Shown here piece after piece: positions 2,552 through 21,838 of a stretch of DNA of 46,325 nt. The translations under genes and the position numbers were made by a program. The stretch comes from a virus, in the IMG/VR virus record IMGVR_UViG_3300009100_000007; one strand, 5' to 3'. Numbering within the stretch: the first letter of the stretch is position 1; the number at the start of each line of letters is the position of its first letter. The notes beneath the pieces are model-generated. The model saw only the letters and a program-made list of their open reading frames with translations. It was not told where the DNA came from and ran no database searches.

Positions 2552-3385
2552 ATGGGAATTATAAGTAAACCGTTCACATTCGTCGGCGGCACGACCAAGG
2601 CCAACGAAGCGTCACAAGTCAATGCTGACCTTGACGCGCTTTATACTTTGGTAAACGGCAATATTGACGATGCGAATGTGATTGCGACCGCCAATATTCA
2701 GCAGTCGAAGATTCTAAACCTCCCCTCAGACTTAAACGTAATACGGGGCGAGCGTGTTACGGAAGTTAATATGCTGTTTTTTCAAGCCAGCGGTACGTAT
2801 ACAAAGCCCGCTGATTTACGGTTCGCTCATATTATCTGCATAGGGGCAGGCGGCGGCGGCGCCGGTGCTGCGTCCAGTAGCGCAAGCTTTCCTTGCGCGG
2901 GTGGCGGGGGAGGGTCCGGGGCATATACCGAAGGCTGGTTTAATGCCGCGAATATTCCTAGCTCGGTTGCCGCTATTGTTGGAACTGGCGGTATTGGCGG
3001 CGGTTTTTTGGGGGCTACTGGTCAAACTAGCGAGTTCGGCGCGTTGTTAAACTCCGCTGGCGGTGCCGGCGGGGATGTCGCCACGGACTCCATTGGCAAT
3101 GGTGGAGCAGGCGGAAGCCCGGCGTTGGGGCAGATTACACTCCCTGGCATTCGTGGTGAAGCAGGGTTTGTAACTACTGCGCCATTTCCTATTGCCAAAG
3201 GCGGGAGTGGCGGTTCGTTAGGGCAGTACATGATTCCGGGAGTCGGCGTATCAGCGGGCGGCTCTTTCAACGGTGTAAACGGCACTCTTGGCGCTGGCGG
3301 CGCCGGTGCTATTGCCATCAACGGTTCTGCGCTAGGCGGCACCGGCGGTCACGGCTTTATATTAGTTGTGGAATTTAAGTCGTGA
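2552..3385 (+). CDS. Tail fibre-like protein with glycine-rich C-terminal domain (277 aa)
   Basis: The N-terminus FTFVGGTTKANEASQVNADLDALYTLVNGNIDDANV is the usual phage fibre N-terminal pattern. It is followed by GAGGGGAG / GGGGGSG / GGAGG glycine runs. Confidence 0.65.
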   Translation: MGIISKPFTFVGGTTKANEASQVNADLDALYTLVNGNIDDANVIATANIQQSKILNLPSDLNVIRGERVTEVNMLFFQASGTYTKPADLRFAHIICIGAGGGGAGAASSSASFPCAGGGGGSGAYTEGWFNAANIPSSVAAIVGTGGIGGGFLGATGQTSEFGALLNSAGGAGGDVATDSIGNGGAGGSPALGQITLPGIRGEAGFVTTAPFPIAKGGSGGSLGQYMIPGVGVSAGGSFNGVNGTLGAGGAGAIAINGSALGGTGGHGFILVVEFKS

Positions 3386-4939: not shown

Positions 4940-4942
4940 TTT

Positions 4943-6310: not shown

Positions 6311-9300
6311 ATGCCGATCGATGAACTTAACGCTATTCGCCAAAAATACCCGGGCAAGTATGACGATCTTGGGGATGGCGACCTTGCCGGGATGCTCGCG
6401 GCGAAATATCCGGCTTACAAGGACTTGCCTGACAGGGTAGCGGCAGAGAGTAAGCCATCGCCTTATAGCGGCTTGGCCGGCGGCGCCGAGGCGAAGATCC
6501 AGCGCACACCCGGATTTTTACAATCCCTTAGCGAAGAAACTAAAGCCGCGTTTCGTCCAGGCAAGACGCTGGCTGACACGGGGGTAAACCCCCTGCAACT
6601 CTTATCGGCGCCGTTTAACGCCATCTCACGCGGCACTACCAAGTACGCCGCGGAGAATCTAAACATCACGCCGCTACAGGCAGACTTGGCGGGCGAGTCA
6701 GCCAGCTTTCTTGCGGGACTGGTTCCGGTTCCGGTAGGCAGAGCGGCGTCAGCGGTTAAAGGCTTATTTCCCAAAGCCCGAACCGTAGAGGAATTACTAC
6801 CCCAACGTGCAGCTTTACCGACCGGGCCAGCAGCGATTGCACCGCCGCCACCTCAGCGAGCCTTGCCGCCGCCTGAAATGGTTATGGAGGCAACACCGGA
6901 CTTAACAACCCCCGGCGGCGCGGTTATGCGCGGCACGGTCAGCCCTGCACCAAAACGGACGATCATTGACCTGATAGACGAAGTGAAACAGGACGTTAAA
7001 AATCAAGTCATGGAGGAGATTTTCCAGGAGCTTCGCACCGGCAGAACAGCGGCAATGCCCAGAGTACAAAGGCCGCAACAGATTGAGCCGCCGCGCCTGC
7101 AATTACCGCCGCCGGAAAAGGTTATCTACGAAGGCACGCCGGAAGGGCAACTATCCGCAACGGCGTGGCGACCCGTACCAAAAGAATCAATCACCAACGC
7201 GCGCGGTCAGGCGGCAGACTTCATGGAGGGAGCAAGGCCGACAATCACGGAAACACCAGCGCCATTGCCAATAAAAGCGCCGGAAACCACAGCTTTAGAT
7301 ACGCTCAAGGAACGCTATGATAGGGTAAAAACGCCAGCGCTTAAAAAGCAGATAGAACAGCAATGGATTGAAAGCCATGAACTAGAGAAAATTCCTATTG
7401 GTTCCGGTTATGGACAAATAACTGGTACGGGCGCTGATACTACAATGACGGCGGCGCCACAATCTCAAATCGATGAAATTTTAAAACCGCTTAGAGAAGG
7501 GCCGCAGGCACCGGCGGCACCAAAGGCACCGCGTCAAACCAAGTCAGATATCGTGTCAGTCATGCAGGGCATTGAGCGCGAGTCGGACCCGGCAACCCTC
7601 TTGACGCTTGCCATAGATGGAAAGACTCCCCGCGATTTACAGCGCATGGCCGGCGATCGATTAAACGATTTCAAGATTAAAGACCTAGCCGTAGCGCTCG
7701 AAACCCTGGACGACGAAGCCCTAAAAAAGCTATCGCGTAGCGGCGCCGTCAGCCAACAGGTGAGCTTTCAGGCTAAAGGATTGCTCAATCGGCGAGTTAA
7801 AACGACACCCGTAGCAGAGGAAATGGCGCCGCGCACCCCGGAAGAAATGATACGCGAGCACCAAACCACCAAGATACTACAGGAAGCGGAAGCGAAGGGG
7901 CGACCAGCCGCAACGCCGGACATTGCGGCAGAAACAGGGAAGCCGCAAATTCATACGGGTCAGCCGTGGGTCAAAGTCCCTGATAAATCCTTAAAGCAGC
8001 TAAACAACTACCTAGCCAATAACCCGGTAGAAGTTCGCAAGAACGTCACCGGGCCAACCGATCATCGTATTACCATAAAAGCCCCAGACGGCACCGGCCT
8101 AGAACTAGGTCAATACGGTGAGGACTGGCACATAACAGGTTGGAATGGACCGAAGTTTGGCAAGGCGGGCAGCACAATGGCCAAAGCCGAGGTCGAGGCG
8201 ACTATTCGCAATCTTACGTCGGCGCCCAAGCCCGGGGCCGAGCGCTCCCTAGGCGATATTCTCAAATCGGAAAAAGGACAGGTCGGCAGCACCGAAACCA
8301 ATCCGTTTGTTACCAGCAGCCGCCTTGCCATTGGCGAAACCTTTGAGCAGGCCGGTAAGACTGTCCGCAAAACTATGGGGCCGGAAGGCAACGAGCTTAT
8401 AGACCGGCTAACCGAAATCAGGAACAAAGGCGAGCGCGAAACCGGCATTGCCAGCCAGCCCATAGAGGATGCAGTTAAGAAGATAAAAAAAGGCGCCGAG
8501 TACGAGAATTTCGTTGACGTGCTCGAAGGCAACGCCGCGCCGGTCAATCAAAACGTCGCTAATGCGGCCAAGCTTGCCGACCCGGTACGGAGAGAGATCG
8601 CGGGGCGCGCAGTAGATGTAGACCTGCAAGTAAAAAATCCTATCACCGGGGAGTATCACCCGTTTCGGCCAAAGGACAATTATTTCCCGCACTACTCCAA
8701 AGAAGAGCTATCCAAATTAGTCGAAGATCCAACGCGGCGGGCCGACATCAAGGCGCAGATCAAGGCAGAGCTAGGCCCAAATGCCACCGACCGCCAAGCG
8801 GAGCAGGCATTGCAGGCGATGATAAAGGCGACCAAGGGACGCGAGGGACACTTGGAAATCGCCCGCGTGCTGGACTTTGGCGACTATCATAAAGACCCGA
8901 GAGCTTTTCTGAAATATATCAACGATGCCTATAGGCGAATCAATACCGCGGAACAGCTGGGGCCACGCCTGGAAAAAGCCGAGGAACTTTTAGCCAAAAT
9001 CGGCCAGAATCACGGCGACAAGGCAGAGAGTTTTGCCCGCACGCTACTCAACCGCGAGCTTCGGCTTGAGCAGACTCCCGACACTCTCGCTAAATCGATG
9101 ATGGAAACGGCGAGAAACTACGAAGTGTTTACCAAACTCGGGCGGGCCTTTATTCCCAACCTTTCACAGCACGCTTACACGGCGATTGTGGCAGGAACGA
9201 AGAACACCGGGAAGGCGATGGGCGAAGCATTTACCAAAGGCGGGAAGGAATTTGCCAGACGCGCCGGCGTTATCAACGATGAAGTTATCAAGGAATTTCT

Positions 9301-10171
9301 AAACGAGGCATCAGGCGCAACCGGCGAGGGGATGCTTCGTAAGGCGATCGGGATAGAACTCAAGCCCTTTCAATGGAGCGAAAGGCTAAACCGCACAGTG
9401 GCGGCGCTATCCGGGAGAAACTACGCGCGCGAAACCTTTGACGCGCTAGTCGCCAAACCGGGGCAAGCGAAGCTCAGACAATCCTTAGAAAAGATGGGTA
9501 TTGACGTTGATAGCGCGCTTGCGCGCGGGGCGTTATCTGAAACCGACGAACTCAAGGCGGCGCAGAATATCGTCAACCGCACGCAATTCAAGGTCGATCC
9601 AATTGAATTGCCGCTCTTTTGGAGCAGCCCGGAGGGAAAGCTTTTAACTCAATTCAAGTCTTTCAATTTCAAATCGGGCCAATTCATCAAGGATGAAGTC
9701 TTAAAAGAGCTTGGCAAGGGAAACGTGGCGCCGTTTATTCGGGCTGTTTCGATCTTGCCGCCGGCGGGGCTTGCAGTAAAGAAAGTACAAAACGCGCTTA
9801 AACCCTCCGACGACAAGAAAGAGGGCATTGCGGATTATCTCGCGGCAGTTGGCGTGCTTGGACTGTTCAGCGATTTGTTCCGTACTTCGGGACGCACTGG
9901 CGAGGGATTTTTAGCGGGGCCGACATTGAGCGATATCGGTCAGGGTGTCGGCGCAATCAGCACCACGCGGCAAAACATTCAAAACGAAAAACCCGCGCCG
10001 GCGAAACCGCTCGCCAAGTTTTTAGCCAGGCAGGTGCCGGTAATGGGCCCGACTCTTAGCGGTATGTTGAACGAGCATAAAGAAAAATCCCCGCACGACA
10101 AGATACTTCAGGAATTAGGCATGGATCGGGATAGTCATAAAAAACTGAAATCGCAGTTGGGGCTAAAATAA
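6311..10171 (+). CDS. Large internal virion / DNA-ejection-type protein (1286 aa)
   Basis: One of the two largest ORFs, with no tape-measure context. It has duplicated Pro-rich segments (PPPPQRALPPPEMVMEATPD / EPPRLQLPPPEKVIYEGTPE). Position is equivalent to T7 gp16. No catalytic motif recognised. Confidence 0.55.
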   Translation: MPIDELNAIRQKYPGKYDDLGDGDLAGMLAAKYPAYKDLPDRVAAESKPSPYSGLAGGAEAKIQRTPGFLQSLSEETKAAFRPGKTLADTGVNPLQLLSAPFNAISRGTTKYAAENLNITPLQADLAGESASFLAGLVPVPVGRAASAVKGLFPKARTVEELLPQRAALPTGPAAIAPPPPQRALPPPEMVMEATPDLTTPGGAVMRGTVSPAPKRTIIDLIDEVKQDVKNQVMEEIFQELRTGRTAAMPRVQRPQQIEPPRLQLPPPEKVIYEGTPEGQLSATAWRPVPKESITNARGQAADFMEGARPTITETPAPLPIKAPETTALDTLKERYDRVKTPALKKQIEQQWIESHELEKIPIGSGYGQITGTGADTTMTAAPQSQIDEILKPLREGPQAPAAPKAPRQTKSDIVSVMQGIERESDPATLLTLAIDGKTPRDLQRMAGDRLNDFKIKDLAVALETLDDEALKKLSRSGAVSQQVSFQAKGLLNRRVKTTPVAEEMAPRTPEEMIREHQTTKILQEAEAKGRPAATPDIAAETGKPQIHTGQPWVKVPDKSLKQLNNYLANNPVEVRKNVTGPTDHRITIKAPDGTGLELGQYGEDWHITGWNGPKFGKAGSTMAKAEVEATIRNLTSAPKPGAERSLGDILKSEKGQVGSTETNPFVTSSRLAIGETFEQAGKTVRKTMGPEGNELIDRLTEIRNKGERETGIASQPIEDAVKKIKKGAEYENFVDVLEGNAAPVNQNVANAAKLADPVRREIAGRAVDVDLQVKNPITGEYHPFRPKDNYFPHYSKEELSKLVEDPTRRADIKAQIKAELGPNATDRQAEQALQAMIKATKGREGHLEIARVLDFGDYHKDPRAFLKYINDAYRRINTAEQLGPRLEKAEELLAKIGQNHGDKAESFARTLLNRELRLEQTPDTLAKSMMETARNYEVFTKLGRAFIPNLSQHAYTAIVAGTKNTGKAMGEAFTKGGKEFARRAGVINDEVIKEFLNEASGATGEGMLRKAIGIELKPFQWSERLNRTVAALSGRNYARETFDALVAKPGQAKLRQSLEKMGIDVDSALARGALSETDELKAAQNIVNRTQFKVDPIELPLFWSSPEGKLLTQFKSFNFKSGQFIKDEVLKELGKGNVAPFIRAVSILPPAGLAVKKVQNALKPSDDKKEGIADYLAAVGVLGLFSDLFRTSGRTGEGFLAGPTLSDIGQGVGAISTTRQNIQNEKPAPAKPLAKFLARQVPVMGPTLSGMLNEHKEKSPHDKILQELGMDRDSHKKLKSQLGLK

Positions 10172-10392
10172 TGGCCGATCAATTCAAAGACACTAGCCTA
10201 AACGATGTTGCAGCCCTCGGCGGCATGGAAGAAGTAGGCGCAGGTTCCCTCGGTGCGACCGTCTGGAAACCGATGGCGCCTGCACTCGGTACATTCAAAG
10301 ACACTAGCTTAAACGACATTACGACTCTAGGCGGTATGGAAGAAGTCGGCGCGGGGAGTCTCGGCGGTACTATCTGGAAGGTAACGGAATGA
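10171..10392 (+). CDS. Small protein made of two ~29-aa repeats (73 aa)
   Basis: FKDTSLNDVAALGGMEEVGAGSLGATVWK and FKDTSLNDITTLGGMEEVGAGSLGGTIWK. Start and stop both overlap neighbouring genes (TAATG / ATGA). Confidence 0.65.
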   Translation: MADQFKDTSLNDVAALGGMEEVGAGSLGATVWKPMAPALGTFKDTSLNDITTLGGMEEVGAGSLGGTIWKVTE

Positions 10393-13300
10393 AAAAATTT
10401 TTACTCTATTGTTTGCTATTTGGCATTAGCCACTTGCCATTACTAGCCCAAGCTCAAACTGTCTATACCCCAAACCTGAACTTAGCCTTGCCGCCGGCTG
10501 CTCCTAACACATGGGGCGAGCAGTACAATAACAACTTTTCCACCCTTGATGAGAAGTTCCCAGGCGGTCAGGCGGCACACGGTATTCAAGATGAGGGGGC
10601 AAATCTTACACCTCGACAAAAACTGAATTTCAAGGGCGCCGGGGTAACGGCGGCGGATAATCCAGGCACCGGGGCAACCGATGTAACGATCACTTCGGGC
10701 GGCGGCGGCTCGGGAACACCGGGCGGCGCGGACGGTCAGGTGCAGTTTAATAGCTCCGGTAGTTTCATGGGCGAACCGGGGTTTACGTACAACGCCGTGA
10801 CCGATGTAGTCACCGCAGGCGGCTTTATCGGGCCTCTAACCGGCAACGTAACCGGAAATGTGACGGGCAATCTGACGGGCAATGCAAGCACAGCCACCGC
10901 ACTCAGCGCCAACCCAAATAATTGCTCACCGGGCAACGCGCCGACAGGCATCACCGCGGCGGGTGTCGCGGAAGATTGCTTCGATGTAGCAACACAGCCT
11001 GAACTAGACACCCACGGCGCACTTACCGGCGCCACGGCGGCGCACGGCGCAGTATCGACCAATACCGCGAGTCAGATCGTCACTAGGGACGGCAGCGGGA
11101 ACTTTGCCGCCGGCACAATCACCGCGAACCTCACCGGAAACGTGACCGGCGCGGTTACGGGCAATGCCTCCACGGCCACGGCTTTGGCCGCAAACGGTTC
11201 AAACTGCCCAGCAGGACAGGCGGCGGGCGGGGTTAGCGCAGCAGGCGCGGCAGAGGATTGTATCGTCGTAGGATCAGGCGCAGGCGTGCCGATTGTGCTG
11301 GACCTCGGCAACGACGCATCGAGCGAATCAGGCGACCTTGCCAAGATCACCACGACCGGCGATACAAATTCGATTTTTACCGAACCCAACGCAGACGAAC
11401 TCCGCATCAATGTTGGCAACAAATGGCCGGCATCGAATACCGCTGATGCACTAGCGACGAACGGCGCAAACTGCTCATCGGGCAGCGCGCCTTTAGGAGT
11501 GGACGCAGCGGGCGCGGTCGAAGGGTGTTTCGACGTAGCGACTCAGACCGAACTAAACACGCACGGCGCGCTAACCGGCACCGCCGCGCACGGCGCGACC
11601 ACGACCAACACGGCGAGCCAGATTGTAACGCGCGACGGTTCAGGCAACTTCGCAGCGGGCACCATCACGGCGACCCTAACAGGCAACGTCACCGGAACCG
11701 TAACCGGATCACTCGTTGGAAACGCCTCCACCGCTACCGCGTTGGCTGCTAACGGGACTAACTGTAGCGCAGGCCAAGCCGCGTCGGGGGTAGACGCATC
11801 GGGCAATGCCGAAGGGTGCAGCACTATATTGGCAACCCCAGGCGGCAGTGACACACAGGTTCAGTTTAACGATGGCGGCACTCTAGGCGCCGACGCTGGA
11901 CTTACTTACAACAAAACCACGGACGTGCTAACCGCAGTGGGCGGATTTGTCGGAGCCCTCACCGGCAACGCGACCACGGCGACCGCACTCGCCGCCAATC
12001 CAACGGACTGCACCGCGGGCCAATTTGCAACAGCAATCGCGGCAAACGGAAATCTAACCTGTACCACGCCGGCAGGCGGCGGCGATGTTACCGGGGCAGC
12101 ATCATCGGTCAATAATGAAATCGCGCTCTTTAGCGGCACGACCGGCAAGGTGCTGCAACGCGCAACCACAACCGGGATTCTTAAAGGAACGAGCGGCGTT
12201 ATCGGCGCAGCGATAGCAGGAGCCGACTATGTAACCCCTGCGGGCAACGTCGCCACGGCTACGGCACTAGCGGCGAACGGAGATAACTGCGCCGCAGGGC
12301 AAGCCCCGTTAGGCGTCAATGAGGCAGGATTTGTTGAGGGCTGCACAAACTATATGGAGGAACCGGCCTCAACCGGATTTGTTGCCAAAACGGCATCTAA
12401 TACCGCAGTCGGCAGAGCGATCACCACGACGACACCCGTAACCGTCACCGCTGGCGACGGCGTAGCAGCCAACCCGGTTATTGCTTGCCCGACTTGCGGC
12501 GTTACCGGCTCGCCTCTTTCACAGTTTGCCGCGACCACTTCGGCGCAACTTGCGGCGACCATATCCAATGAAACCGGATCAGGCGCGGTTGTATTCGGCA
12601 CCTCACCGACATTGACCACGCCGGTAATTGGCGACTTTACGACCTCACAACACGCGCACACTGCGGCGGCGAGCGGCGGCAAACTCACGGCGAGCACTGC
12701 GCTAACAGCGACAGGAACGCCAAGTTCCGCCACCTTCTTACGCGGCGACAACGCATGGACGACGGTTGCCGCAGCCGCAGGCGGGAGCACTTCGCAACTC
12801 CAATACAACAACGCTGGCGCAATCGCAGGCACGTCCGGTTGTAGCTCGGACGGTACGAACGTCACTTGCGGAACAGATAATCTAAGGAGCACGAACAGCC
12901 GTATCACCAGCGGATTGCGTGATACCAACGGAAACCCCTGGATTGCGACCACGTCAACGCCGAGCGCAGTCAACGCCATCACCGTGACCAACGCAGCGAC
13001 GGGCGGCACGCCGACGATTACCGCGAGCGGCAGCGATTCCAACATAGGACTTGGCATTGCGGGCCAAGGGACCGGGGCAATCTGTATCGGGACGGATTGC
13101 TCATCGAGCACCTCCACCACCGGCAACCTCGAAGTAGGCACGCTGAAGCTCAACGGCACCGGCAGCGGCACAGTCAGCATTTTACCGGGAGCGGCGGCGG
13201 CGGGAACTTATAATCTTAATCTGCCGGTCACGGCGGGCACCGCGGGCCAAGTCCTCACATCGCAAGGCGGCAGCTCAAACGCGATGACCTGGACAACTCT

Positions 13301-14144
13301 AGGAGCAGGCACCGGCACTGTCACCAACAACGGCGGCGCCTTAACGTCCAATGCCATTATTTTAGGCGCAGGCGGCAATGATTCCAAAGTGGCGGCAGGC
13401 TTCACCACGGACGGAACAAGTAAAGTCATTCTAGGTGTCGCGGGTACTTCGGTTGGAAGCGTGGACTTCAAGAACGCTACTTCCGGCACGATCACCATGC
13501 AACCCGTGACCGGCGCATTAGGCACCGTGACGCTATCACTTCCGGCAACTACCGGCACCGTAGCCCTAGAAGCCGGCAACGTGGCGACAGCAACGGCACT
13601 GGCGGCAAATCCAGCCGACTGTTCATCTAACCAATTCGCTCACACAATCGCGGCCAGCGGCGCCCTGACCTGCTCCGCATTGACCCTAGCCAGCGCGCAA
13701 TTCGCCAACCAGGGCACCACCTCGACCGTGCTCCACGGCAACGCAGCTGGCAATCCTTCATTTGCGGCGGTGTCCTCGGCAGACGTGAACGCGGACCTGA
13801 AACGGCGCTCGTGTGAACTAGGATGGGGCAGCAAGCAAGCTGGCGCCGTTGCAATAGCGACCGATGATGACTTGCCTTTCGTTTGTTCCAACCTTACCGG
13901 CTCAACGATGACGATTGAATCAGTGGAGTGCTTGGCCGACGCGGCGAACATGACCGTGGACGTACTAACCACAGGCGGCGCCAGCATCCTAACCGGCGCG
14001 GTTACTTGCGGCAACGGCACCTTTGTGGCGGCGACACTATCCGGCACACCGACGCAGGCGAATAATGGCACGTTCGACGTGAATATAGGCACCAACGCGA
14101 GCAGCGCGAAGTACGCGGTAGTGAGAATCAAGAGGACTCTATAG
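10389..14144 (+). CDS. Tail fibre protein with N-terminal Sec-type signal peptide (1251 aa)
   Basis: MKKFLLYCLLFGISHLPLLAQA-Q is followed by the fibre N-terminal motif YTPNLNLALP...W..QYNNNFSTLD. Also has the QIVTRDGSGNFAAGTITA fibre motif twice and seven TATALAAN..NC...C modules. Confidence 0.85.
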   Translation: MKKFLLYCLLFGISHLPLLAQAQTVYTPNLNLALPPAAPNTWGEQYNNNFSTLDEKFPGGQAAHGIQDEGANLTPRQKLNFKGAGVTAADNPGTGATDVTITSGGGGSGTPGGADGQVQFNSSGSFMGEPGFTYNAVTDVVTAGGFIGPLTGNVTGNVTGNLTGNASTATALSANPNNCSPGNAPTGITAAGVAEDCFDVATQPELDTHGALTGATAAHGAVSTNTASQIVTRDGSGNFAAGTITANLTGNVTGAVTGNASTATALAANGSNCPAGQAAGGVSAAGAAEDCIVVGSGAGVPIVLDLGNDASSESGDLAKITTTGDTNSIFTEPNADELRINVGNKWPASNTADALATNGANCSSGSAPLGVDAAGAVEGCFDVATQTELNTHGALTGTAAHGATTTNTASQIVTRDGSGNFAAGTITATLTGNVTGTVTGSLVGNASTATALAANGTNCSAGQAASGVDASGNAEGCSTILATPGGSDTQVQFNDGGTLGADAGLTYNKTTDVLTAVGGFVGALTGNATTATALAANPTDCTAGQFATAIAANGNLTCTTPAGGGDVTGAASSVNNEIALFSGTTGKVLQRATTTGILKGTSGVIGAAIAGADYVTPAGNVATATALAANGDNCAAGQAPLGVNEAGFVEGCTNYMEEPASTGFVAKTASNTAVGRAITTTTPVTVTAGDGVAANPVIACPTCGVTGSPLSQFAATTSAQLAATISNETGSGAVVFGTSPTLTTPVIGDFTTSQHAHTAAASGGKLTASTALTATGTPSSATFLRGDNAWTTVAAAAGGSTSQLQYNNAGAIAGTSGCSSDGTNVTCGTDNLRSTNSRITSGLRDTNGNPWIATTSTPSAVNAITVTNAATGGTPTITASGSDSNIGLGIAGQGTGAICIGTDCSSSTSTTGNLEVGTLKLNGTGSGTVSILPGAAAAGTYNLNLPVTAGTAGQVLTSQGGSSNAMTWTTLGAGTGTVTNNGGALTSNAIILGAGGNDSKVAAGFTTDGTSKVILGVAGTSVGSVDFKNATSGTITMQPVTGALGTVTLSLPATTGTVALEAGNVATATALAANPADCSSNQFAHTIAASGALTCSALTLASAQFANQGTTSTVLHGNAAGNPSFAAVSSADVNADLKRRSCELGWGSKQAGAVAIATDDDLPFVCSNLTGSTMTIESVECLADAANMTVDVLTTGGASILTGAVTCGNGTFVAATLSGTPTQANNGTFDVNIGTNASSAKYAVVRIKRTL
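10881..13675 (+). repeat. Seven dispersed ~35-aa Cys-loop modules (GNAxTATALAANxxxC-x17to19-C) within the fibre gene
   Basis: Read from the translation. Peptide repeats are conserved while their DNA is heavily diverged at synonymous sites (for example 11067..11126 versus 11613..11672). Confidence 0.8.
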
Positions 14145-15568
14145 TGCGCAAGATCCTTTTACTGCTCTCATTCTTTGTCGCCCTATCAGGCGAGGCGTTT
14201 GCGGTCATCGGCTTTGAATCCTCGACCGAATCGCACACCGGAACGACCGGCTCTCAGAGTCAGGCGTCTTTCGATATCACCGTGCCCTTTACCGCCAACT
14301 CCAAGGGGCTCTTGGTTTTCACGTACAACGCCAATTCCAACGCGAACGACGGCACGAGCGTCAAGATCGACCCTGCGGGCACGAACAGGGATGTTCCAGC
14401 CGTCACAGGCGGTTTAGCATCAGATACAGTAGGCGAGCCGGGAAGCTGCAAAGCATGGTTTTTAGGAACCGGCGCATTTCCATCGTCAAACACAACCGTT
14501 CGCATCAACCGAAACAACAACGCGAATATCATGTACGCCGTGGCGATCACAGTCACGGCGGGCGCCAACACCTATTACAACGCCGGCGGCAGCACGCCAG
14601 TGTTACAGGAAGGCGACGGAGCAATAGCCGAATCTTTTCTTAACACCAACGCGATTACCGCAATGCGTTTTCAGTGTGGCTATAACGGCTCGAACAACGC
14701 CCCGGCAGCAGGCGCCAACTCGACCCTTTTACAGTCGATCGATTTCGGCTCTTTCACAGCGGGAGCTTGCAGAGAGACAACCGCAGGCAGCGGCGACCGA
14801 TCGGCAGGCTGCACGGCATCGAGTGACGACAGAGCAGCGGTTACTCTGGCGATTGCCGAAATTCCCGCTTGTTCAGGAACGACTTGGACAAGTACGGGCA
14901 TCAAAGCCACCGGGGCGAGCAGCAGCAACGCGGATTCGGCAACGCTGACGTTAGGCGACACATCAACCAATTCTTTTATCGCGGTGTCTGTGTCGATATT
15001 TGACAGTGACGCAAACCCCGCATCCATCACAGTCAGCGACAACATCAACGGCACTTATACATCGAGCTTTTACCAGGGCATTACGAACGGCGGCATCGGC
15101 ATCCGGTACTTCCCAACCAACCCAGGCGGCAATCTTATCATTACAGCCAACCCGGACGGGGCAACATCGGACTTTAGCATAATGGCGCATGAGTTTTGCG
15201 GCGGTCACGCGACACCCGCGAGCGGTTCGCCCGTAACAGCCACCGGCTCCAGCACCACGCCATCAACGGGAGCTATGACGCCGGCGGACAATAACGTGCT
15301 GTTGCTGGCAAGCGTCGTCGCGCACGTTACCCCCGGCACTATAACCGAAAACGCAGGCGGTCAGGGATTCACGTTGAGCAATGAGCGTGAAGATGGATTC
15401 GGCGGAACGTCATCCTTTGTTTACAAGATTATTTCAGGCGCACCCGGCACGCCAAGCGAGAGCTGGACCACTACTAACAGCGGCGCATGGGCGGCAGGCA
15501 TCGCAGCATTCAAGCCAGCGTTTCAGCCGACGCCAGTGGTACGGCCCCACAGGATCATCAACTATTAA
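14144..15568 (+). CDS. Signal-peptide-bearing protein with two tandem ~220-aa beta-rich domains (474 aa)
   Basis: GTG start overlaps the upstream TAG. N-terminus MRKILLLLSFFVALSGEAFA-V. The S/T/N/G-rich composition resembles fibre or adhesin proteins. Confidence 0.7.
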   Translation: MRKILLLLSFFVALSGEAFAVIGFESSTESHTGTTGSQSQASFDITVPFTANSKGLLVFTYNANSNANDGTSVKIDPAGTNRDVPAVTGGLASDTVGEPGSCKAWFLGTGAFPSSNTTVRINRNNNANIMYAVAITVTAGANTYYNAGGSTPVLQEGDGAIAESFLNTNAITAMRFQCGYNGSNNAPAAGANSTLLQSIDFGSFTAGACRETTAGSGDRSAGCTASSDDRAAVTLAIAEIPACSGTTWTSTGIKATGASSSNADSATLTLGDTSTNSFIAVSVSIFDSDANPASITVSDNINGTYTSSFYQGITNGGIGIRYFPTNPGGNLIITANPDGATSDFSIMAHEFCGGHATPASGSPVTATGSSTTPSTGAMTPADNNVLLLASVVAHVTPGTITENAGGQGFTLSNEREDGFGGTSSFVYKIISGAPGTPSESWTTTNSGAWAAGIAAFKPAFQPTPVVRPHRIINY

Positions 15569-15576
15569 GGAGCACA

Positions 15577-17850
15577 ATGAAAAGATTTGGACTTTTATTC
15601 GCTCTACTCTTGATTGCCCTGTACCCTGACTTTTCCTTTGCCGTAGCGCTGACAAGAACAATTCCTTACACAGAATCAATTTGTCTTACCAACCCTGACG
15701 TGTTTTTCTGTGAGGACTTCGACGGTCAAGACATCACGCCGATTCCAAGTAGTTGTCTGTCCAACTACACTAATCCTGGAATTTTGGTCAAAGACATTTG
15801 CTTCCCGAACGGCGGCTCACACCAACTATCAACCGCACCCCTATCCGGTTTTAACCAATCCACTAATAAGGTTTGGCGGTGCAGTAAAACAACCGGATAT
15901 GTGGACCTTGATACGGGCGTCAATACGGGAACGGGAAATTGCGCCGTGGCCGGATGGCTCAAACCATCGATTCTAGGGACCGGCGCGCGCGAATGGTACA
16001 TGCGGTTCCAGGTTTATTGGCACACAAACCATACGTGGCCGGTAGACTATGATTATAAGTTGCCCGGTTGGAGCTTGCCGGAAGTCTTCATTGACCCGCC
16101 ATCAGCCGAATACGAAGCAGGGGTTTATGTCCATCAGGACTTTGCTTGCCAGATTTCAGGCACATGGACAAGCTTCAACGATGTTCCGACAATTCGCTAC
16201 TCCAACGGTTTCCAGCAAGCCCCCTACCAAAACGAGTATTGCCCACCACTCACACCAGGAACCGCGGCAAACGGCGTCAACGCGCCGAGGTTAGTCACAG
16301 GGAGATGGTACACGATCGAATTGCATTACAAATTAAGCACCGATCCAGCTCAAGGCCGGATGCAGTTATGGATTGATGATAACCTGACCTATGACTTCAC
16401 TCGCGCAACCTGCACCGGCGGCTGCGCGGACATGAATTATATTTACGCTGCGCTTGGTTTTATGAACCCCGCAGACCCGGCAACGGGTTACGCCGAGTTC
16501 GATAACTTGGTTTACTCCCGCGCAAAGATCGGCTTGCCAGCCGGCGCAGTACCGCCGCCAACCGTGGCATACGTCGCGTCCAAAAATTCCACCACGGCAA
16601 CAGCCAACGCGATCCTAGGGAGAACATCGGGCAGCGGCGCGGTTGAAGTTAAATTTACCAACATGAACACCGCGACTTATTTGATCGGCTCAAATACGGT
16701 GCGGGTAGTTGCCGAGCGCATACCGGACAACGGACTAAGTGCATTAACTGCACCTACTCCGGTTATAAATGCGGATTATCCGGTTGTCAGTAATACTGTG
16801 ACCGTAACCTTACCAACATTCGGGGCAACGGAAGCTTACACCTTCACCTTAACACAGGGCACAGGCGGCAGTCCGCCGGCACCAGTGAGCACAACCGAGA
16901 CAGTTACGATTGCGATGCATCTCGACGGCGGCGCGGTCACGTATAGGGGTAGCGGCTTTCTACATCACGGCATTCTAACCGGCTCACCAACGGACGCACT
17001 AACAACGCCGATGAAAACGAAGCTTGTCAGGTGCGGCGCGGTTGGCGCGAATGACGTGTGCAACACGAATTACACCCGCATCGTGAGTCTAGGCGCGACG
17101 CCGCAGATGTTACTAAGCGATAACTTTTATCAGGCACCTTGGCCGGGAGACGGCGGCAACTGGACAGCATGGGAAAACCAATGCTCAAGCAAGGTCAATG
17201 CGGCAGTCGCCGCGGGCAGAACCTTCCAATACGATATATGGAATGAACCGAACTCGACTAACCCGTTTTGGGGCGCGGCAGGCGGGCAAAGCCAATGGTT
17301 TGAAGCCTACAAACGCTGCGTCAATATCATTCGCGGCATCCTTCCCGGCGCGGTAATTGTCGGGCCGAGCGTAGGGCCTTATGATGAAACCTACTTGCAA
17401 CAGTTTTTGACCTATGCCAAGGCCAACAGCGTATTACCAGACCGCTTATCGTGGCATGAGTTTTTTGGCGGCTCAGAAGTGGAAGGGCACGTTACCGCCA
17501 TGCGCACCTACATGGACAACAACGCCATCACGCGCATACCAATTTCCATTAACGAATATGCAGGTCCGACGCAGTTTTATTCTCCCGGTCAACTTGTGTG
17601 GTATCTCGCCGCCTTCGAGCGGGCGGGAGTGGATAGCGCCTCTCACGCTTGTTGGGATGACGCAGGGACCGACACCGGAAATAATTGCTTCAACACGCCG
17701 GCAACATTGAACGGATTATTAACAACCAACGGAACATCGCGGCGCTCGGGTTGGTGGGCGCATAAAGGATACGGCGATCTAAGCGGGCGGCTTGTCGGCT
17801 TCGGCTCCCAGGCGACTGTTCCAATTGCGGCGACACTTAAAATCCAATGA
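15577..17850 (+). CDS. Signal-peptide-bearing putative depolymerase: polysaccharide-lyase-like concanavalin-fold N-domain plus clan GH-A glycoside hydrolase C-domain (757 aa)
   Basis: AGGAG RBS and ATG at 15577 give MKRFGLLFALLLIALYPDFSFA-V. GRWYTIELHYKLS...RMQLWIDDNL is lyase/lectin-fold-like. YDIWNEPN (near 17240) and INEYAG (near 17550), about 100 aa apart, match the GH-A acid/base and nucleophile motifs. The track start at 15487 lies inside the upstream gene. Confidence 0.7.
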   Translation: MKRFGLLFALLLIALYPDFSFAVALTRTIPYTESICLTNPDVFFCEDFDGQDITPIPSSCLSNYTNPGILVKDICFPNGGSHQLSTAPLSGFNQSTNKVWRCSKTTGYVDLDTGVNTGTGNCAVAGWLKPSILGTGAREWYMRFQVYWHTNHTWPVDYDYKLPGWSLPEVFIDPPSAEYEAGVYVHQDFACQISGTWTSFNDVPTIRYSNGFQQAPYQNEYCPPLTPGTAANGVNAPRLVTGRWYTIELHYKLSTDPAQGRMQLWIDDNLTYDFTRATCTGGCADMNYIYAALGFMNPADPATGYAEFDNLVYSRAKIGLPAGAVPPPTVAYVASKNSTTATANAILGRTSGSGAVEVKFTNMNTATYLIGSNTVRVVAERIPDNGLSALTAPTPVINADYPVVSNTVTVTLPTFGATEAYTFTLTQGTGGSPPAPVSTTETVTIAMHLDGGAVTYRGSGFLHHGILTGSPTDALTTPMKTKLVRCGAVGANDVCNTNYTRIVSLGATPQMLLSDNFYQAPWPGDGGNWTAWENQCSSKVNAAVAAGRTFQYDIWNEPNSTNPFWGAAGGQSQWFEAYKRCVNIIRGILPGAVIVGPSVGPYDETYLQQFLTYAKANSVLPDRLSWHEFFGGSEVEGHVTAMRTYMDNNAITRIPISINEYAGPTQFYSPGQLVWYLAAFERAGVDSASHACWDDAGTDTGNNCFNTPATLNGLLTTNGTSRRSGWWAHKGYGDLSGRLVGFGSQATVPIAATLKIQ

Positions 17851-19868
17851 AGAAACTACTATTACTGTTCGCAATATTGCTAATGCCCGCATGGGCGGAG
17901 GCGGCGACCTACTATGTCAAGCAGGCCAGCACCAACACCACGACTTGTGCCCTTGCGACCAGCTCCACCGGCAACAATCCGGTGAACACTTTCAAGCGCG
18001 GGCTTGAGTGCATGGCAGGCGGCGACACCTTGCAATTGATGGCTGATGGCCTCGGCGGGACGGCGACTTATGAAGAGGATTTATACAGCACGAACACAAA
18101 TCCGCCTAGCGGTACAGCAGGCGCACATACGACGATCCGTACTTTCGGCACCGACACTATTCGGTTTACGCATAACAGCTCTCTCAATTTCTACAACGGC
18201 AATTTCGAGTACGTGGATTTTATCGGCGGCTGCACCACCGGCATCAATCGAGTCTGTAAAATGATTTGGGACGGAGGGGCAAACGGCGCAAATTTCGCTA
18301 TCGCAGGAGGGAATATTGCGTTCGGTGGAACACCAAACACACCCGCACATCACTTAATCTTTGATGGTATTCGCGTTACTGGATATTGGAACAACAACGG
18401 CATCTCGGGCGAGGCTAGCAACGTTACAATCAGGAACTCTCGTATCGATAACAACGGTATTGACTATTCAAGCTCTGGTTTTCCTGGCTACGGGTTTTAT
18501 ATCGCGGCGGCGTCAGGCTTCGTGCTTGAATTTTCTGAGATAGATAACAACGGGAATTGGGGAGTGCATCATTTCTCGTCTGGTCTAGATTATACCTGTT
18601 GTACAGGCGCTGTATTACGATTTAACATTTTTCGTAACAATGGCGTTACTAAGCCAGCGGCACAATCAAGCGGCGACGTGCTCATGGGCATGTCTAACAA
18701 CGCCAAGATTTATGGAAACTTAGTCTACGGCAGCGGCAGCGAGTATGGAATCCGCATTGATTATACTTCGCGGGATGCGCTTGTCTATAACAACACCGTT
18801 CACGGCAGTACCTACGCCGCTTATGGCCAAGGTGATGCTGCGGGCACTCCTCCACAAAACAACACGTTCATAAACAACATAGCGCACCCTACTGGCGTAG
18901 GGACTGCGTTTAGTCTAGGCACGTCAACTGGAAGTGTTTTTTCTAATAACCTTTGCAGTAGTTCAACAACCGGTTGTGACCCCTTATTGAGTGAATCGCC
19001 ATCGACGACATTCAACGACGTGGCGAGTAACAACTTCACCCTCAAGGCCGGTTCCAAGGCGATCAACGGCGGTACTGATTTGCCCTCTCCTTACAACAAG
19101 TCGATCGACGGCACCACACGCAACCCAGGATTCTTTGACGTAGGCGCCTACGAAACGACGATGATGGCCCCGTCATGCCCCGCCGCGTCGCCCGCGCTAG
19201 TAGCGAGCTACAGTTTTGAAGGGGTAGGGACCGACGGCACAGGCAACGGGCACACGGCAACGCTAGGGACAGGTTGGAGTTATACAACAGGCAAATTCGC
19301 GCAGGGCGCAGTCACGGACGGCACCGCGGGTATCACCGTAGCCGACGCTAACGACCTAGACTTTTGCGGCGGCTTTACTCTGATGGCTTGGGTCAATCTC
19401 CCCGACACGCTTAACGACTATGCGCTAATCGTAAAGAACCCCAACAGCAAATATTTTCTCTTCGCTTCCATATCGAACTACTGTGGCGCAGGTCGAATGA
19501 TGGGCGGTTATTCGCAAGACCCTACCTTCGTTGCTGCTTGCTATTCCAGTGCGCCGATCACAACCGGAATCTTTCAACACTTAGCTGTCACCTATGACTC
19601 GACGTTTCCAACCTCGAGCGTGAAGCTCTATATAAACGGCTCACAGATTGCCAGCGCGGACGGGACCGCGCTACTCGACGCAACCACCGGCACCCTGCAA
19701 TTTTGTGAATCAGGATTCGGCGAGATATGCCCCAGCGGCACGATCCTTGATGACGTGAAGATATTTAACTACGCACTAACCTCGCCGCAGATAATCACGG
19801 CAATGGGCGGCGCAGCGCGGACAGTCAAAGTTGCCACAGGGCAGACCGTGAAAGTAGGTCAGCAATGA
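17847..19868 (+). CDS. Signal-peptide-bearing right-handed beta-helix protein with C-terminal LamG/concanavalin-like domain (673 aa); putative tailspike/depolymerase
   Basis: MKKLLLLFAILLMPAWAEA-A. Repeated IRNSRIDNNGI / SEIDNNGNWG / FRNNG / YNNTVHG / INNIAH PbH1-like turns. The C-terminus FTLMAWVNL...HLAVTYD...VKLYINGSQ...LDDVKIFNYALT is Laminin_G_3-like. Confidence 0.7.
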   Translation: MKKLLLLFAILLMPAWAEAATYYVKQASTNTTTCALATSSTGNNPVNTFKRGLECMAGGDTLQLMADGLGGTATYEEDLYSTNTNPPSGTAGAHTTIRTFGTDTIRFTHNSSLNFYNGNFEYVDFIGGCTTGINRVCKMIWDGGANGANFAIAGGNIAFGGTPNTPAHHLIFDGIRVTGYWNNNGISGEASNVTIRNSRIDNNGIDYSSSGFPGYGFYIAAASGFVLEFSEIDNNGNWGVHHFSSGLDYTCCTGAVLRFNIFRNNGVTKPAAQSSGDVLMGMSNNAKIYGNLVYGSGSEYGIRIDYTSRDALVYNNTVHGSTYAAYGQGDAAGTPPQNNTFINNIAHPTGVGTAFSLGTSTGSVFSNNLCSSSTTGCDPLLSESPSTTFNDVASNNFTLKAGSKAINGGTDLPSPYNKSIDGTTRNPGFFDVGAYETTMMAPSCPAASPALVASYSFEGVGTDGTGNGHTATLGTGWSYTTGKFAQGAVTDGTAGITVADANDLDFCGGFTLMAWVNLPDTLNDYALIVKNPNSKYFLFASISNYCGAGRMMGGYSQDPTFVAACYSSAPITTGIFQHLAVTYDSTFPTSSVKLYINGSQIASADGTALLDATTGTLQFCESGFGEICPSGTILDDVKIFNYALTSPQIITAMGGAARTVKVATGQTVKVGQQ

Positions 19869-20179
19869 TTACAATTACGATCCTGTTATTTGCCGCTATT
19901 CTTCTGTCAGGTTGCAGCACAACTTGGTTCTCGTGCCAAACAGTAGCGACGTACAACAAGGATGGGGAATGGTCGTACAAGTCGTGCAAGAACCAGGAGA
20001 ATTTCAAGGCTTATGTGGGCACGGATAAGAATGGGCGCCAATTTATTGAAGTCGAAACAACCGCCACGACTGCCGAATCAGCTATCATTGCCGCGAGTAA
20101 AGGCATGGCGGTTGCGTTCGATTCTCTCAATAGACTGATTCCGATCCTCGAAAAAGCGGCGCTGACCGGCGGAAGCTAA
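19865..20179 (+). CDS. Lipoprotein (104 aa), possible spanin-like or lysis-associated
   Basis: MITITILLFAAILLSGC has a lipobox (LSGC). The ORF overlaps the upstream gene by ATGA and immediately precedes the lysozyme gene. Confidence 0.65.
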   Translation: MITITILLFAAILLSGCSTTWFSCQTVATYNKDGEWSYKSCKNQENFKAYVGTDKNGRQFIEVETTATTAESAIIAASKGMAVAFDSLNRLIPILEKAALTGGS

Positions 20180-20721
20180 TGACCCCGCTCGACGGCGCCG
20201 TTAGATATTACGATGCCGTTACCGCCGCCCTCAAGGGCTACCCGGCAGCTATAGATCCAGCCTTAATCATCGCCATAATCCTACAGGAATCAGCCGGGAA
20301 CCCTTGGGCCTATAACCCCGAGCCGCGCTACCGCTGGTTTTGGAACGTCCGAAACGATTCCCCCTTCAGAAAGATAAACGATATCGAGATTGCCTCCAAA
20401 ATACCCCCTAATGACTTCCCTTGCCTCATTGGCGACCCCGATCAGGAATGGTGGGGCCAACAAGCCAGTTGGGGTTTAATGCAGGTAATGGGCGCGGCGG
20501 CGAGGGAGCAGCACTTTCGCGGCCCGTACCTTACCGAGCTTTGCCACCCCTATCTAAATATCGAGTACGGTATCAAGCACTGGTGGAATTTTGCCTCCCA
20601 ATTCGGGCGACGGAGTTCGGAAGCATCCTTGTCGCGCTGGAACACCGGCAACGATAGGGACGGACGCAGTTACGCTAAATCGGTGCTCGACAAACTCCCC
20701 GCCGTCCAAGCCGCAGTCTAA
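20179..20721 (+). CDS. Lytic transglycosylase (SLT-domain) endolysin or virion lysozyme (180 aa)
   Basis: AIILQESAGNPWAYNPE contains the catalytic-Glu motif of SLT/goose-type lysozymes. WGLMQVMG and YN.G-like motifs lie downstream. No signal peptide. Confidence 0.85.
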   Translation: MTPLDGAVRYYDAVTAALKGYPAAIDPALIIAIILQESAGNPWAYNPEPRYRWFWNVRNDSPFRKINDIEIASKIPPNDFPCLIGDPDQEWWGQQASWGLMQVMGAAAREQHFRGPYLTELCHPYLNIEYGIKHWWNFASQFGRRSSEASLSRWNTGNDRDGRSYAKSVLDKLPAVQAAV

Positions 20722-20764
20722 ATTCCCCCGCCGAAAATTATTTTTAAAAAAAATAAAAAAGTAC

Positions 20765-20793
20765 TTGACATCAACACGTACACGCACTATAAC
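20765..20793 (+). promoter_or_regulatory. Sigma70-type early promoter: TTGACA - 17 nt - TATAAC, with an upstream A/T tract
   Basis: -35 at 20765..20770 and -10 at 20788..20793, read directly. Preceded by ttatttttaaaaaaaataaaaaag. Sits at the late-to-early operon boundary. Confidence 0.75.
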
Positions 20794-21048
20794 GTGTCCA
20801 TGAGAGCAAATCACATAGGGGGAAACGAGCCAGCTATGAGAAAGCAATTTCAATTTAACATAAGCGACGAAGATGCTTGGCGAGCGGTCAGAATAGCAAG
20901 GCGAGCAGAGGCAATGACCAAGGGAATGAAAACATTCAAGGAGCAATGGAAAGAGGAGCGAAAGAAGGCCAAGGAGAAAAAGAAGCATGAAGAAAAAAAT
21001 CTACAAGTCAACGATCACCTTCCGCGTAGACCCAAGCCTCAAGCGTGA
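20794..21048 (+). CDS. First early ORF, possibly RHH-like, Lys-rich C-terminus (start uncertain: 20794 GTG, 20800 ATG or 20836 ATG)
   Basis: Immediately downstream of the promoter. RKQFQFNISDEDAWRAVRIARRAEAM resembles an RHH strand-helix. Its 3' end overlaps the next ORF by 62 nt in another frame. Confidence 0.4.
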   Translation: MSMRANHIGGNEPAMRKQFQFNISDEDAWRAVRIARRAEAMTKGMKTFKEQWKEERKKAKEKKKHEEKNLQVNDHLPRRPKPQA

Positions 21049-21154
21049 AATTGTGAAAGCGGCAAAGGCGGCAAGGCTAACCCGCTCGGCATACGTAGAA
21101 CAGTTAGTCAAAAGGGCATGGGTATATGGTCTTGCGACCCCGGCACCACGATAG
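20987..21154 (+). CDS. Ribbon-helix-helix (CopG/Arc-like) DNA-binding protein (55 aa; below the ORF-track size cutoff)
   Basis: MKKKIYKSTITFRVDPSLKREIVKAAKAARLTRSAYVEQLVKRA is a textbook RHH pattern (beta strand, then two helices). Translated by hand; TAG at 21152..21154. Confidence 0.65.
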   Translation: MKKKIYKSTITFRVDPSLKREIVKAAKAARLTRSAYVEQLVKRAWVYGLATPAPR

Positions 21155-21170
21155 AAGGGAGAAAAATAAT

Positions 21171-21404
21171 ATGGCAATGACGAAAACCGATATCAAGCAC
21201 GGAACAGTCACAATCAATGAAGCGGCTGACTCCCTGAACGACAACATCGAGAGTCTAAGCAAGTCCGTTGACTGGGCCTGCGCCGAGATTGAACGGCTAC
21301 GCGCGGCAAATGTCAAGCTCACAGTGGAGAATATGGAATTGACGCTCAAGAACGATAATCTGATTTATTACATTAAAGCTAACATGGCGGCGAGGGTAAA
21401 TTGA
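21171..21404 (+). CDS. Coiled-coil hypothetical protein (77 aa)
   Basis: GAAGGGAG RBS 9 nt before the ATG at 21171, in the frame of track ORF 21126..21404. Confidence 0.6.
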   Translation: MAMTKTDIKHGTVTINEAADSLNDNIESLSKSVDWACAEIERLRAANVKLTVENMELTLKNDNLIYYIKANMAARVN

Positions 21405-21657: not shown

Positions 21658-21672
21658 GGAAGGAAAAGATAA

Positions 21673-21825: not shown

Positions 21826-21838
21826 GGGAGCAAATCCA

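Follow-up and report, generated by a model that had tools for sequence, protein, structure and literature searches.

Export signals on a block of late genes

Fibres, tailspikes and depolymerases are the main host-range determinants of phages and are assumed to be made in the cytoplasm and joined to the particle before lysis. The virus record IMGVR_UViG_3300009100_000007 raises the question of why a phage would place export signals on such proteins, since five consecutive open reading frames (ORFs) of the window, by which we mean the whole analysed stretch of 46,325 nucleotides, begin with signal-peptide-like sequences. These ORFs, at 10389-20179, had been pointed out in an earlier note on this DNA, and their coordinates and translations were confirmed here. 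Judged from their sequences, the four large ones (10389-19868) most likely encode late phage proteins with cleavable Sec-type signal peptides, which would be exported and cut by signal peptidase I. The fifth (19865) is probably an ordinary lysis-cassette outer-membrane lipoprotein resembling an o-spanin; because it abuts the endolysin gene and resembles a lysis-cassette lipoprotein found elsewhere, the anomaly comprises four proteins and not five, as first described. The block contains the following features (aa, amino acids; ↓, predicted cleavage site).

10389..14144, + strand: fibre-like protein, 1251 aa, with leader MKKFLLYCLLFGISHLPLLAQA↓QTVY, a conserved ~32-aa module and a variable, repeat-rich shaft
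10389..10454, + strand: signal peptide of the fibre-like protein, 22 aa, predicted cleavage AQA↓Q
14144..15568, + strand: 474-aa protein, GTG start, 20-aa leader MRKILLLLSFFVALSGEAFA↓VIGF (AFA↓V)
15577..17850, + strand: 757-aa protein, 22-aa leader MKRFGLLFALLLIALYPDFSFA↓VALT (SFA↓V), Cys-rich lyase-like N-terminal domain, clan GH-A-like C-terminal hydrolase
17847..19868, + strand: 673-aa protein, 19-aa leader MKKLLLLFAILLMPAWAEA↓ATYY (AEA↓A), right-handed beta-helix, LamG domain, C-terminal tail TVKVATGQTVKVGQQ
19865..20179, + strand: lipoprotein, 104 aa, lipobox LLSG↓C at residues 13-17, stop overlapping the endolysin start

Signal peptides were called by a rule-based scan for the tripartite structure together with comparative evidence, and the leaders are thus predicted. 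All four large ORFs combine a basic n-region (MKK, MRK, MKR and MKK), a hydrophobic core within the 7-16 residues expected of a signal peptidase I substrate and small residues at positions -3 and -1. The cores, rich in Leu and Phe, are 10-16 residues long (Kyte-Doolittle means 2.6-3.4), and the predicted cleavage sites (AQA↓Q, AFA↓V, SFA↓V and AEA↓A) are of the AxA or SxA type. Cleavage there would generate the mature N-termini pyroGlu/Gln-TVYTPNLNLALPPAAPNTWGEQYNNNFSTLDEK, VIGFESSTESHTGTTGSQSQASF, VALTR and ATYYVK. The lipoprotein carries, after a hydrophobic leader, a lipobox of the form [LVI][ASTVI][GAS]C, but its n-region has no Lys or Arg, so that the basic n-region initially attributed to every leader holds for the four large ORFs and not for this one.

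Such N-termini could in principle be hydrophobic by chance, derive from mis-called starts, or form a conserved cytoplasmic assembly helix. When about 53 genes were scanned, a Kyte-Doolittle mean of at least 2.6 over the N-terminal 10 residues was found only in the five ORFs of the block and in the transmembrane protein at 37471-37797, and the probability of five such genes all being adjacent among 53 is 1.7e-5; the hydrophobicity scan of a control phage locus produced a single weak hit among 26 genes. Independent gene calls agree on the starts, and Shine-Dalgarno motifs, present upstream of several examined genes, precede three of the five leader-bearing ORFs (10389, 14144 and 15577). The open frame of ORF 15577 extends to 15487, and the motif AAGGAG lies 6 nt before 15577, a start also used by independent gene calls on identical metagenome contigs. 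What speaks for a non-secretory origin is the lipoprotein leader without a basic n-region and one apparently leaderless homologue of ORF 17847 (P0008); the start of the latter, MANA↓AQYYV, resembles the last residues of a leader cut short. Given also that dozens of homologues have leaders without sequence conservation, and that most relatives of ORF 14144 lack a leader and hence leave no room for an assembly helix, we find a non-secretory explanation barely credible.

Leaderless isoforms arising through internal initiation were also rejected, because no in-frame ATG, GTG or TTG lies near any of the predicted cleavage sites. Alternatively, the leaders might be retained as uncleaved membrane anchors (signal anchors, or segments like those of signal-anchor-release (SAR) endolysins) that sequester harmful enzymes or sticky fibres until depolarisation at lysis. 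SAR endolysins are a precedent for late phage proteins held by their N-terminus (PMC6116005), and the block adjoins lysis genes both in the window and in four other phage-like contigs (L020, L021, L023 and L042). However, SAR segments are weakly hydrophobic, rich in Gly, Ala and Ser and devoid of a cleavage site, whereas the cores described here are Leu/Phe/Ile-rich, with means of 2.6-3.4, and are followed by AxA. Leaderless relatives, moreover, start precisely where cleavage is predicted, a point in favour of leader removal that makes permanent anchoring very unlikely.

Conservation and modularity of the leaders

In homologues at 26-77% identity the character of the leader is kept and its sequence is not. 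Leaders are present in nine of the ten full-length homologues of ORF 17847, P0008 being the apparent exception, and at 26-59% identity a leader of unrelated sequence is followed by a conserved A↓(A/T)TYYV. Homologues of ORF 15577 with a cleanly called N-terminus (P0175-P0177) all have a full leader (3/3); in P0178 the leader lies behind an over-long gene call, and in P0179 the called start lies within the leader. In one of these proteins, P0176, the N-terminal lyase-like half is gone and the hydrolase half is directly preceded by a new leader, a finding hard to explain unless the leader is under selection for export. Relatives of the fibre behave in the same way, and the proposal that these segments are export signals, not a conserved assembly helix, is thereby supported.

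The clearest view of the leader as a module was provided by ORF 14144, for which an exhaustive search returned 676 homologues. About 90 of the 149 best cluster representatives start with M-AVA(H/F)D..ESHTGTTG, that is, at the predicted cleavage position and without a leader, and about 10 have a signal peptide or transmembrane segment that ends directly before the same motif, these counts resting on automated gene calls. Because most relatives start leaderless at the cleavage position, the leader of ORF 14144 is an optional, removable module and not an assembly helix. The idea of a leader grafted onto a normal protein, put forward for the fibre, therefore applies to ORF 14144, but the fibre itself gave no leaderless counterpart.

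The fibre-like protein and the distribution of cysteines

Directly after its leader, the fibre-like protein carries the conserved module of about 32 aa, QTVYTPNLNLALPPAAPNTWGEQYNNNFSTLD. Leader and N-terminal motif occur in eight related loci (L040, L048-L054) and in three short fragments (P0167-P0169), the motif being truncated in some; its consensus is Q(T)xx(Y/F)TPNxxLALPPAAPGTWGEQYNNNFxTLD, past which the sequences diverge freely. Five of the eight loci hold complete fibres of 671-892 aa, in which the leader ends in a small residue before the mature Gln. Searches of Pfam, isolated-phage and protein-cluster collections found no leaderless counterpart of this motif, which had been described as the usual N-terminus of fibres. 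The repeat modules of the shaft, in turn, are common to annotated leaderless tail fibres or structural proteins of a Manatee Spring podovirus, a Limnohabitans autographivirus and a Synechococcus myovirus. The protein had been called a genuine tail fibre; on its repeats it is a candidate for one. Pfam and PHROG gave no match to the N-terminus of any of the four large ORFs, and a recognisable N-terminal particle-attachment domain is lacking, the fibre having only the 32-aa module.

The four large proteins contain 1.93% Cys vs 0.28% in nine core virion proteins (Fisher p=5e-13). In the mature fibre of the window, 24 Cys form 12 close sequential pairs, and in five related signal-bearing fibres all Cys (10, 10, 10, 10 and 8) are likewise in close sequential pairs, whereas leaderless fibres with the same repeats have Cys counts of 0/2110, 2/748 and 7/1025 and no close pairs. 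Within the ORF 17847 family, Cys columns vanish two at a time (620 with 628; 444 with 507), as would be expected of disulfide partners, which fits an oxidising compartment. The Cys patterns of the signal-bearing fibres and of the ORF 17847 family are thus consistent with oxidative folding. As a general mark of leader-bearing forms, Cys enrichment was rejected for the ORF 14144 family and kept for the fibres and ORF 17847. Nor is Cys content alone a marker of export in this genome, because small, presumably cytoplasmic proteins are also very rich in Cys: those encoded at 45384-45710, 31099-31347 and 36622-37056 have 5.6-8.3% Cys with CxxC-type spacing and are presumably zinc-binding.

Folds of the three other signal-bearing proteins

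The 474-aa product of ORF 14144 consists of two tandem beta-sandwich domains (approximately residues 21-240 and 247-460) in an AlphaFold2 (AF2) model, with a predicted local distance difference test score (pLDDT) above 90 for domain 1. Its fold matches predicted structures of minor tail proteins from Mycobacterium and Gordonia phages, with a target-normalised TM-score of up to 0.73; a PDB search with the model gave nothing significant. One leaderless relative sits in the head region of an unrelated phage. Seven relatives of 640-1885 aa (P0057, P0084, P0086, P0101, P0128, P0147 and P0160) combine a membrane-anchor or signal segment, an ORF 14144-type domain and long repeats, so this domain also opens cell-surface giants. 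In another relative, P0019 (874 aa), a signal peptide, beta-helix, LamG domain and C-terminal ORF 14144-type domain are fused, uniting modules of two window genes in one polypeptide.

For ORF 15577, GH39 (E=1.4e-5, 24.6 bits, against a Pfam cut-off of 26) and Polysacc_lyase (E=1.3e-3) both remained below the Pfam cut-off, although the motifs WNEPN and INEY are visible in the sequence. In ORF 17847, Laminin_G_3 was detected at E=2e-17, and the beta-helix is indicated by Pfam matches of homologues and by an AF2 model of low confidence (pLDDT 52), which has a helix at residues 2-16, strands from residue 22 and the beta-helix beginning at residue 21-22 (ATYYV). The domain assignments that had been proposed therefore hold for LamG and, by these indirect routes, for the beta-helix; the adhesin-like protein resolves into two beta-sandwiches, and the lyase and hydrolase calls stay below threshold despite WNEPN. 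NCBIfam matches to EexN lipoprotein and choice-of-anchor Q were below threshold and were given no weight. PDB sequence matches of ORF 17847 are the periplasmic AlgG, a xylosidase and an extracellular arabinanase; structural matches of its model include tailspikes (among them CBA120 TSP2 and HK620) as well as bacterial lyases, and are generic enough not to separate the two.

In both enzymes (15577 and 17847) the catalytic fold starts right after the leader, with no N-terminal particle-binding domain, and this N-terminus is identical in type across podovirus-like, T7-like and siphovirus-like contigs. At the other end, short basic tails of the form (V/F)x(R/H)(R/H/K)R(V/I)x, for example VVRPHRIINY, GVRHRVVQ, SSRRRVH and ISRRRIQ, were observed on signal-bearing proteins of unrelated families. 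A repeated, hairpin-like xVKVxxGxxVKVGxQ tail was observed on the beta-helix family and is retained in P0013, which has no LamG domain. Such recurrent C-terminal tails, found in the window (14144-15568 and 17847-19868), in L020, L021, L040, L042, L048 and L050 and in P0002-P0014, may be docking or sorting peptides.

Genome and operon context

Bases 1-123 of the window are identical to bases 46203-46325; owing to this exact 123-bp terminal overlap, the window represents a circularly closed assembly with a true length of about 46,202 bp. Contigs of 46.1-46.3 kb in several metagenomes represent the same genome. Among its products are a portal of P22 type, a major capsid protein of HK97 type, an SU10-type adaptor at 131-802, a nozzle at 1052-2551 and three large proteins of ejection type, and with the leaderless fibre listed below these make it a complete podovirus genome. 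The identity of its portal to that of any isolated phage is at most 25%, and no integrase, repressor, tRNA or replication polymerase was recognised in the genome. Four further genes bear on the block.

10171..10392, + strand: 73-aa cytoplasmic ORF with two tandem copies of FKDTSLNDxxxLGGMEEVGAGSLGxTxW; no leader, no Cys, no family match
20179..20721, + strand: SLT-domain lytic transglycosylase (endolysin), PF01464 E=3.8e-11, no leader
2552..3385, + strand: leaderless 277-aa tail fibre adjoining the nozzle gene; phrog_863 E=2.5e-27, Gly_rich_2
37471..37797, + strand: 108-aa protein of i-spanin architecture (N-terminal transmembrane helix, charged coiled coil) in the head-gene region

The late operon runs from the ejection proteins through the five leader-bearing ORFs to the SLT endolysin. 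The leader-bearing genes abut or overlap, with ATGA-type junctions, and no convincing internal promoter or terminator was found inside the block. Its four large ORFs occupy about 20% of the genome, at the usual podovirus spike locus. Immediately upstream, the stop of the 73-aa tandem-repeat ORF overlaps the fibre start codon, and a 72-73-aa ORF of this kind also lies directly 5' of the signal-bearing fibre in L040 (12924-13145), L048 (1082-1300) and L054 (3675-3893); its product could serve the fibre as partner or chaperone, or be the final protein of the ejection module. The upstream fibre at 2552-3385 had been said to lack a leader, and the N-terminal scan agrees; it is the canonical candidate for a receptor-binding protein (RBP) assembled in the cytoplasm.

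Downstream, the product of ORF 19865 is 32% identical to a lipoprotein of the L042 lysis cassette, whose gene comes after one for an i-spanin-like protein. The protein at 37471-37797, the sole other membrane-targeted protein in the genome, lies 17 kb from the lipoprotein and endolysin genes, and no holin was recognised anywhere in the genome.

Could the block be passenger DNA, that is, captured bacterial genes for secreted proteins (morons) that aid the host or lysogen, for instance in polysaccharide nutrition or surface change, and have no lytic role? The enzyme architectures do resemble those of cellular secreted carbohydrate enzymes, and Lom and Bor of lambda are signal-bearing products of genes in late regions. 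One homologue, moreover, is carried by a 78-kb element with VirB4 and VirB8. However, no integrase or repressor was recognised, and the genes lack the promoter and terminator of their own that mark a moron, being joined by stop/start overlaps to virion and lysis genes. Among the four modules, two belong to phage tail types, and conservation of the fibre and of the small ORF upstream of it extends through the whole lineage. A profile scan of 185,579 species-representative genomes with the ORF 17847 family revealed no close or prophage relatives, only distant LamG domains, mostly in Planctomycetota/Verrucomicrobiota metagenome-assembled genomes. A passenger origin without a part in the lytic cycle is thus improbable.

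Recurrence in other phages

Comparable runs of signal-bearing ORFs were found in at least four other types of phage or element. Homologues lie on phage-like contigs of 30-49 kb with differing tail modules, including the siphovirus-like L020 and L042, which encode a GpJ-type protein, and L021 and L023, which encode T7-type tail fibres. Each of these contigs has its own run of 3-6 large, Cys-containing, signal-bearing ORFs, usually beside small transmembrane proteins and an endolysin. In the lineage of the window the block always opens with the 72-73-aa tandem-repeat ORF and the signal-bearing fibre, and the downstream members are exchanged between relatives. L023 has a full-length leaderless T7-type fibre beside its signal-bearing block. 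In L021, the similarity of a 237-aa leaderless protein (1545-2258) to T7 gp17-type fibre and spike families of 650-1080 aa is confined to their first ~120 residues, which make up the tail-attachment domain; four signal-bearing proteins (2258-11929) come next, the first of them with a start that overlaps the stop of the 237-aa protein.

A homologue of ORF 15577 with signal-bearing LamG and beta-helix neighbours was also observed at 16469-22132 of a 78.6-kb contig (L041) that encodes VirB4/TrbE and VirB8 and may be a conjugative element or phage-plasmid rather than a simple phage. In other searches, isolated phages gave no match for the endolysin or ORF 14144, and IMG/VR yielded none when scanned with the 1286-aa ejection protein or the ORF 17847 family.

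Inside or outside the virion

Where would the exported proteins act? The reading we prefer, if with slightly less than even confidence, is that of an exported cassette that stays outside the virion and binds and degrades surface glycans. The four proteins would be translated from the late operon shared with the ejection proteins and endolysin, cross the inner membrane unfolded through SecYEG and be cleaved at AxA by signal peptidase I, giving the same N-termini as leaderless relatives. They would then fold in the oxidising periplasm, where disulfides could form, as an exchangeable glycan-recognising and glycan-degrading cassette, with the fibre-like protein as adhesin, the double beta-sandwich as a binding protein, and two enzymes, the lyase-like plus GH-A hydrolase and the beta-helix plus LamG protein. 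Instead of being built into the particle in the cytoplasm, this cassette would work in the envelope or be freed, already folded, at lysis, stripping or masking host capsule, extracellular polysaccharide or lipopolysaccharide, so that progeny would escape the matrix and not be lost on debris or already-infected cells; the adjacent lipoprotein 19865 would belong to the lysis machinery. We prefer this location because the enzymes are built like secreted cellular enzymes without an anchor, because their N-terminus is the same across tail types, because the window and L023 already have leaderless fibres, and because the Cryophage enzymes discussed below offer a precedent.

Several points weigh against an extra-virion cassette. 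Lysis would free the enzymes anyway, which leaves the need for export unexplained, as is the role of an exported fibre of 1251 aa, and no route across the outer membrane was identified. Because the ~32-aa module after the fibre leader is conserved while the rest varies, it has the signature of the docking domain of a virion-attached fibre. The fold of ORF 14144 is that of a virion minor tail protein, and in its family leader-bearing and leaderless relatives have similar Cys counts. The block occupies the podovirus spike locus and about a fifth of the genome, and the arrangement in L021 looks like an adaptor with its spikes.

Much of this would be expected if the proteins were true tail fibres and spikes that are exported to fold and form disulfides and that dock on fibre-poor particles after holin opening or just after the burst, by way of the module conserved behind the leader or of the short, conserved C-terminal tails. 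RBP making would then be split across the inner membrane, with cytoplasmic capsids and tails receiving a short leaderless fibre or adaptor and the exported long fibre and spikes docking once the holin has breached the membrane. An N-module present in every fibre of the lineage ahead of a variable distal part is what is seen in anchored RBPs, and the shaft repeats are those of annotated tail fibres. The fold of ORF 14144 points the same way, most of its relatives being leaderless phage proteins, as do the spike locus in the late operon and the tail-attachment-domain-only protein of L021 with four signal-bearing proteins directly downstream. Cys pairs specific to signal-bearing fibres, and C-terminal tails that recur on unrelated signal-bearing proteins, add to this. 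Fibres and tailspikes, furthermore, attach to fibreless particles in vitro, as in T4 and P22 complementation. On the other side, we know of no tailed phage that docks exported fibres in this way, dilution at the burst would leave a short docking window, the beta-helix enzymes have no lineage-specific anchor and the same N-terminus across tail types, and both the window and L023 already have leaderless fibres. We therefore regard periplasmic maturation of virion proteins, and with it a division of RBP production between the two compartments, as unlikely, though far from negligible.

Comparison with known systems

The closest precedents for an exported cassette are the enzymes of 'Cryophage' with tags for secretion by the type IX system (T9SS) and the Sec-exported endolysins. 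In 'Cryophage', from cryoconite metagenomes, T9SS secretion tags are borne by variable genes whose products are an endoglucanase, a GH39 enzyme and a PA14 protein, and its authors took this as secretion directed by the phage, which might serve superinfection exclusion (Bellas et al. 2020, PMC7468147). Both cases involve uncultured phages with variable carbohydrate-active genes bearing host secretion signals. However, the Cryophage tag is a C-terminal T9SS sorting domain restricted to Bacteroidota, whereas the signals of the window are N-terminal Sec leaders; no Por_Secre_tail or TIGR04183 match was found in the window proteins with Pfam and NCBIfam, and the use of Shine-Dalgarno motifs argues against a Bacteroidota host. 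Unlike the Cryophage genes, the set in the window adds a long fibre and a module with a tail-protein fold, and its genes form an uninterrupted run in translational coupling with those for virion and lysis proteins.

Late phage proteins that reach the envelope through the host Sec system include Sec-exported and SAR endolysins, the T4 RI antiholin and spanins (PMC6116005). These are lysis effectors or regulators of 10-40 kDa, a class to which the lipoprotein 19865 probably belongs, whereas the four large proteins are fibre-, adhesin- and depolymerase-like, of 50-130 kDa and without a peptidoglycan-directed domain. That fibre-type proteins can fold after Sec export follows from the mosaic adhesive trimer (MAT) fibres of Bdellovibrio, which have a signal peptide, are exported and are displayed on the cell surface (Caulton et al. 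2024, PMC10769870). The likeness seen to MAT fibres is one of architecture (signal peptide, conserved N-module, shaft like that of phage tail fibres, variable tips). MAT fibres are bacterial genes with a conserved, beta-rich N-domain of ~130 aa, vs ~32 aa in the window fibre, which on this count would fall outside that family, and many carry an S74 chaperone-protease, whereas Pfam finds no Peptidase_S74 in the window proteins.

As for virion proteins, multi-spike podoviruses of the K1-5/SP6 type and the CBA120 tailspike proteins have consecutive large beta-helix or fibre genes at the end of the structural operon and exchange them as cassettes. The block appears to have a comparable arrangement and cassette exchange, and in L021 a gp17-type tail-binding protein precedes the run. 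Modules of virion RBPs are indeed present, namely the fibre repeats, the ORF 14144 fold and the ORF 17847 model, which matches tailspikes as well as lyases. Known tailspikes, however, have to our knowledge no leader, carry N-terminal particle-binding domains and are assembled in the cytoplasm, whereas the window proteins have leaders and no recognisable N-terminal particle-binding domain.

If the cassette acts outside the virion, it would resemble soluble depolymerases, which are polysaccharide-degrading phage enzymes acting free of the particle. Known soluble depolymerases arise through excess production or alternative starts and are freed from the cytoplasm, a Sec leader playing no part. In plaques, such enzymes are the cause of halos (PMC6116005). 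A literature search, which did not cover all journals, uncovered no tailed phage with Sec leaders described on its tail fibres or tailspikes, nor any soluble depolymerase with one. Phage-directed export as such is already known, and we doubt that the window represents a categorically new case.

Nevertheless, about one-fifth of a phage genome consists of a swappable block of fibre and enzyme genes with export signals, and such blocks recur in several unrelated uncultured lineages. If the products are free factors, the phage would invest heavily in remodelling the surface or matrix of the infected cell from the periplasm, which would matter for the destruction of receptors, for superinfection exclusion and for spread through matrices of biofilm or soil, and such loci would be a source of naturally secretable, disulfide-stabilised depolymerases. 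If they are instead virion-bound, they would be an exception to the textbook rule that tailed phages are assembled wholly in the cytoplasm. In either case, annotations such as 'tail fibre' or 'tailspike', and host-range predictors built on them, would misread such ORFs unless their leaders are checked.

Other genes of the window

Among the other genes of the window are one for an HNH endonuclease, one for endonuclease VII, situated between portal and head genes, and, next to the terminase, those for a PAPS-reductase-like protein and a methyltransferase (25737-26162, 36622-37056 and 31269-32629). MptE-like methyltransferases recur in L020 and L045.

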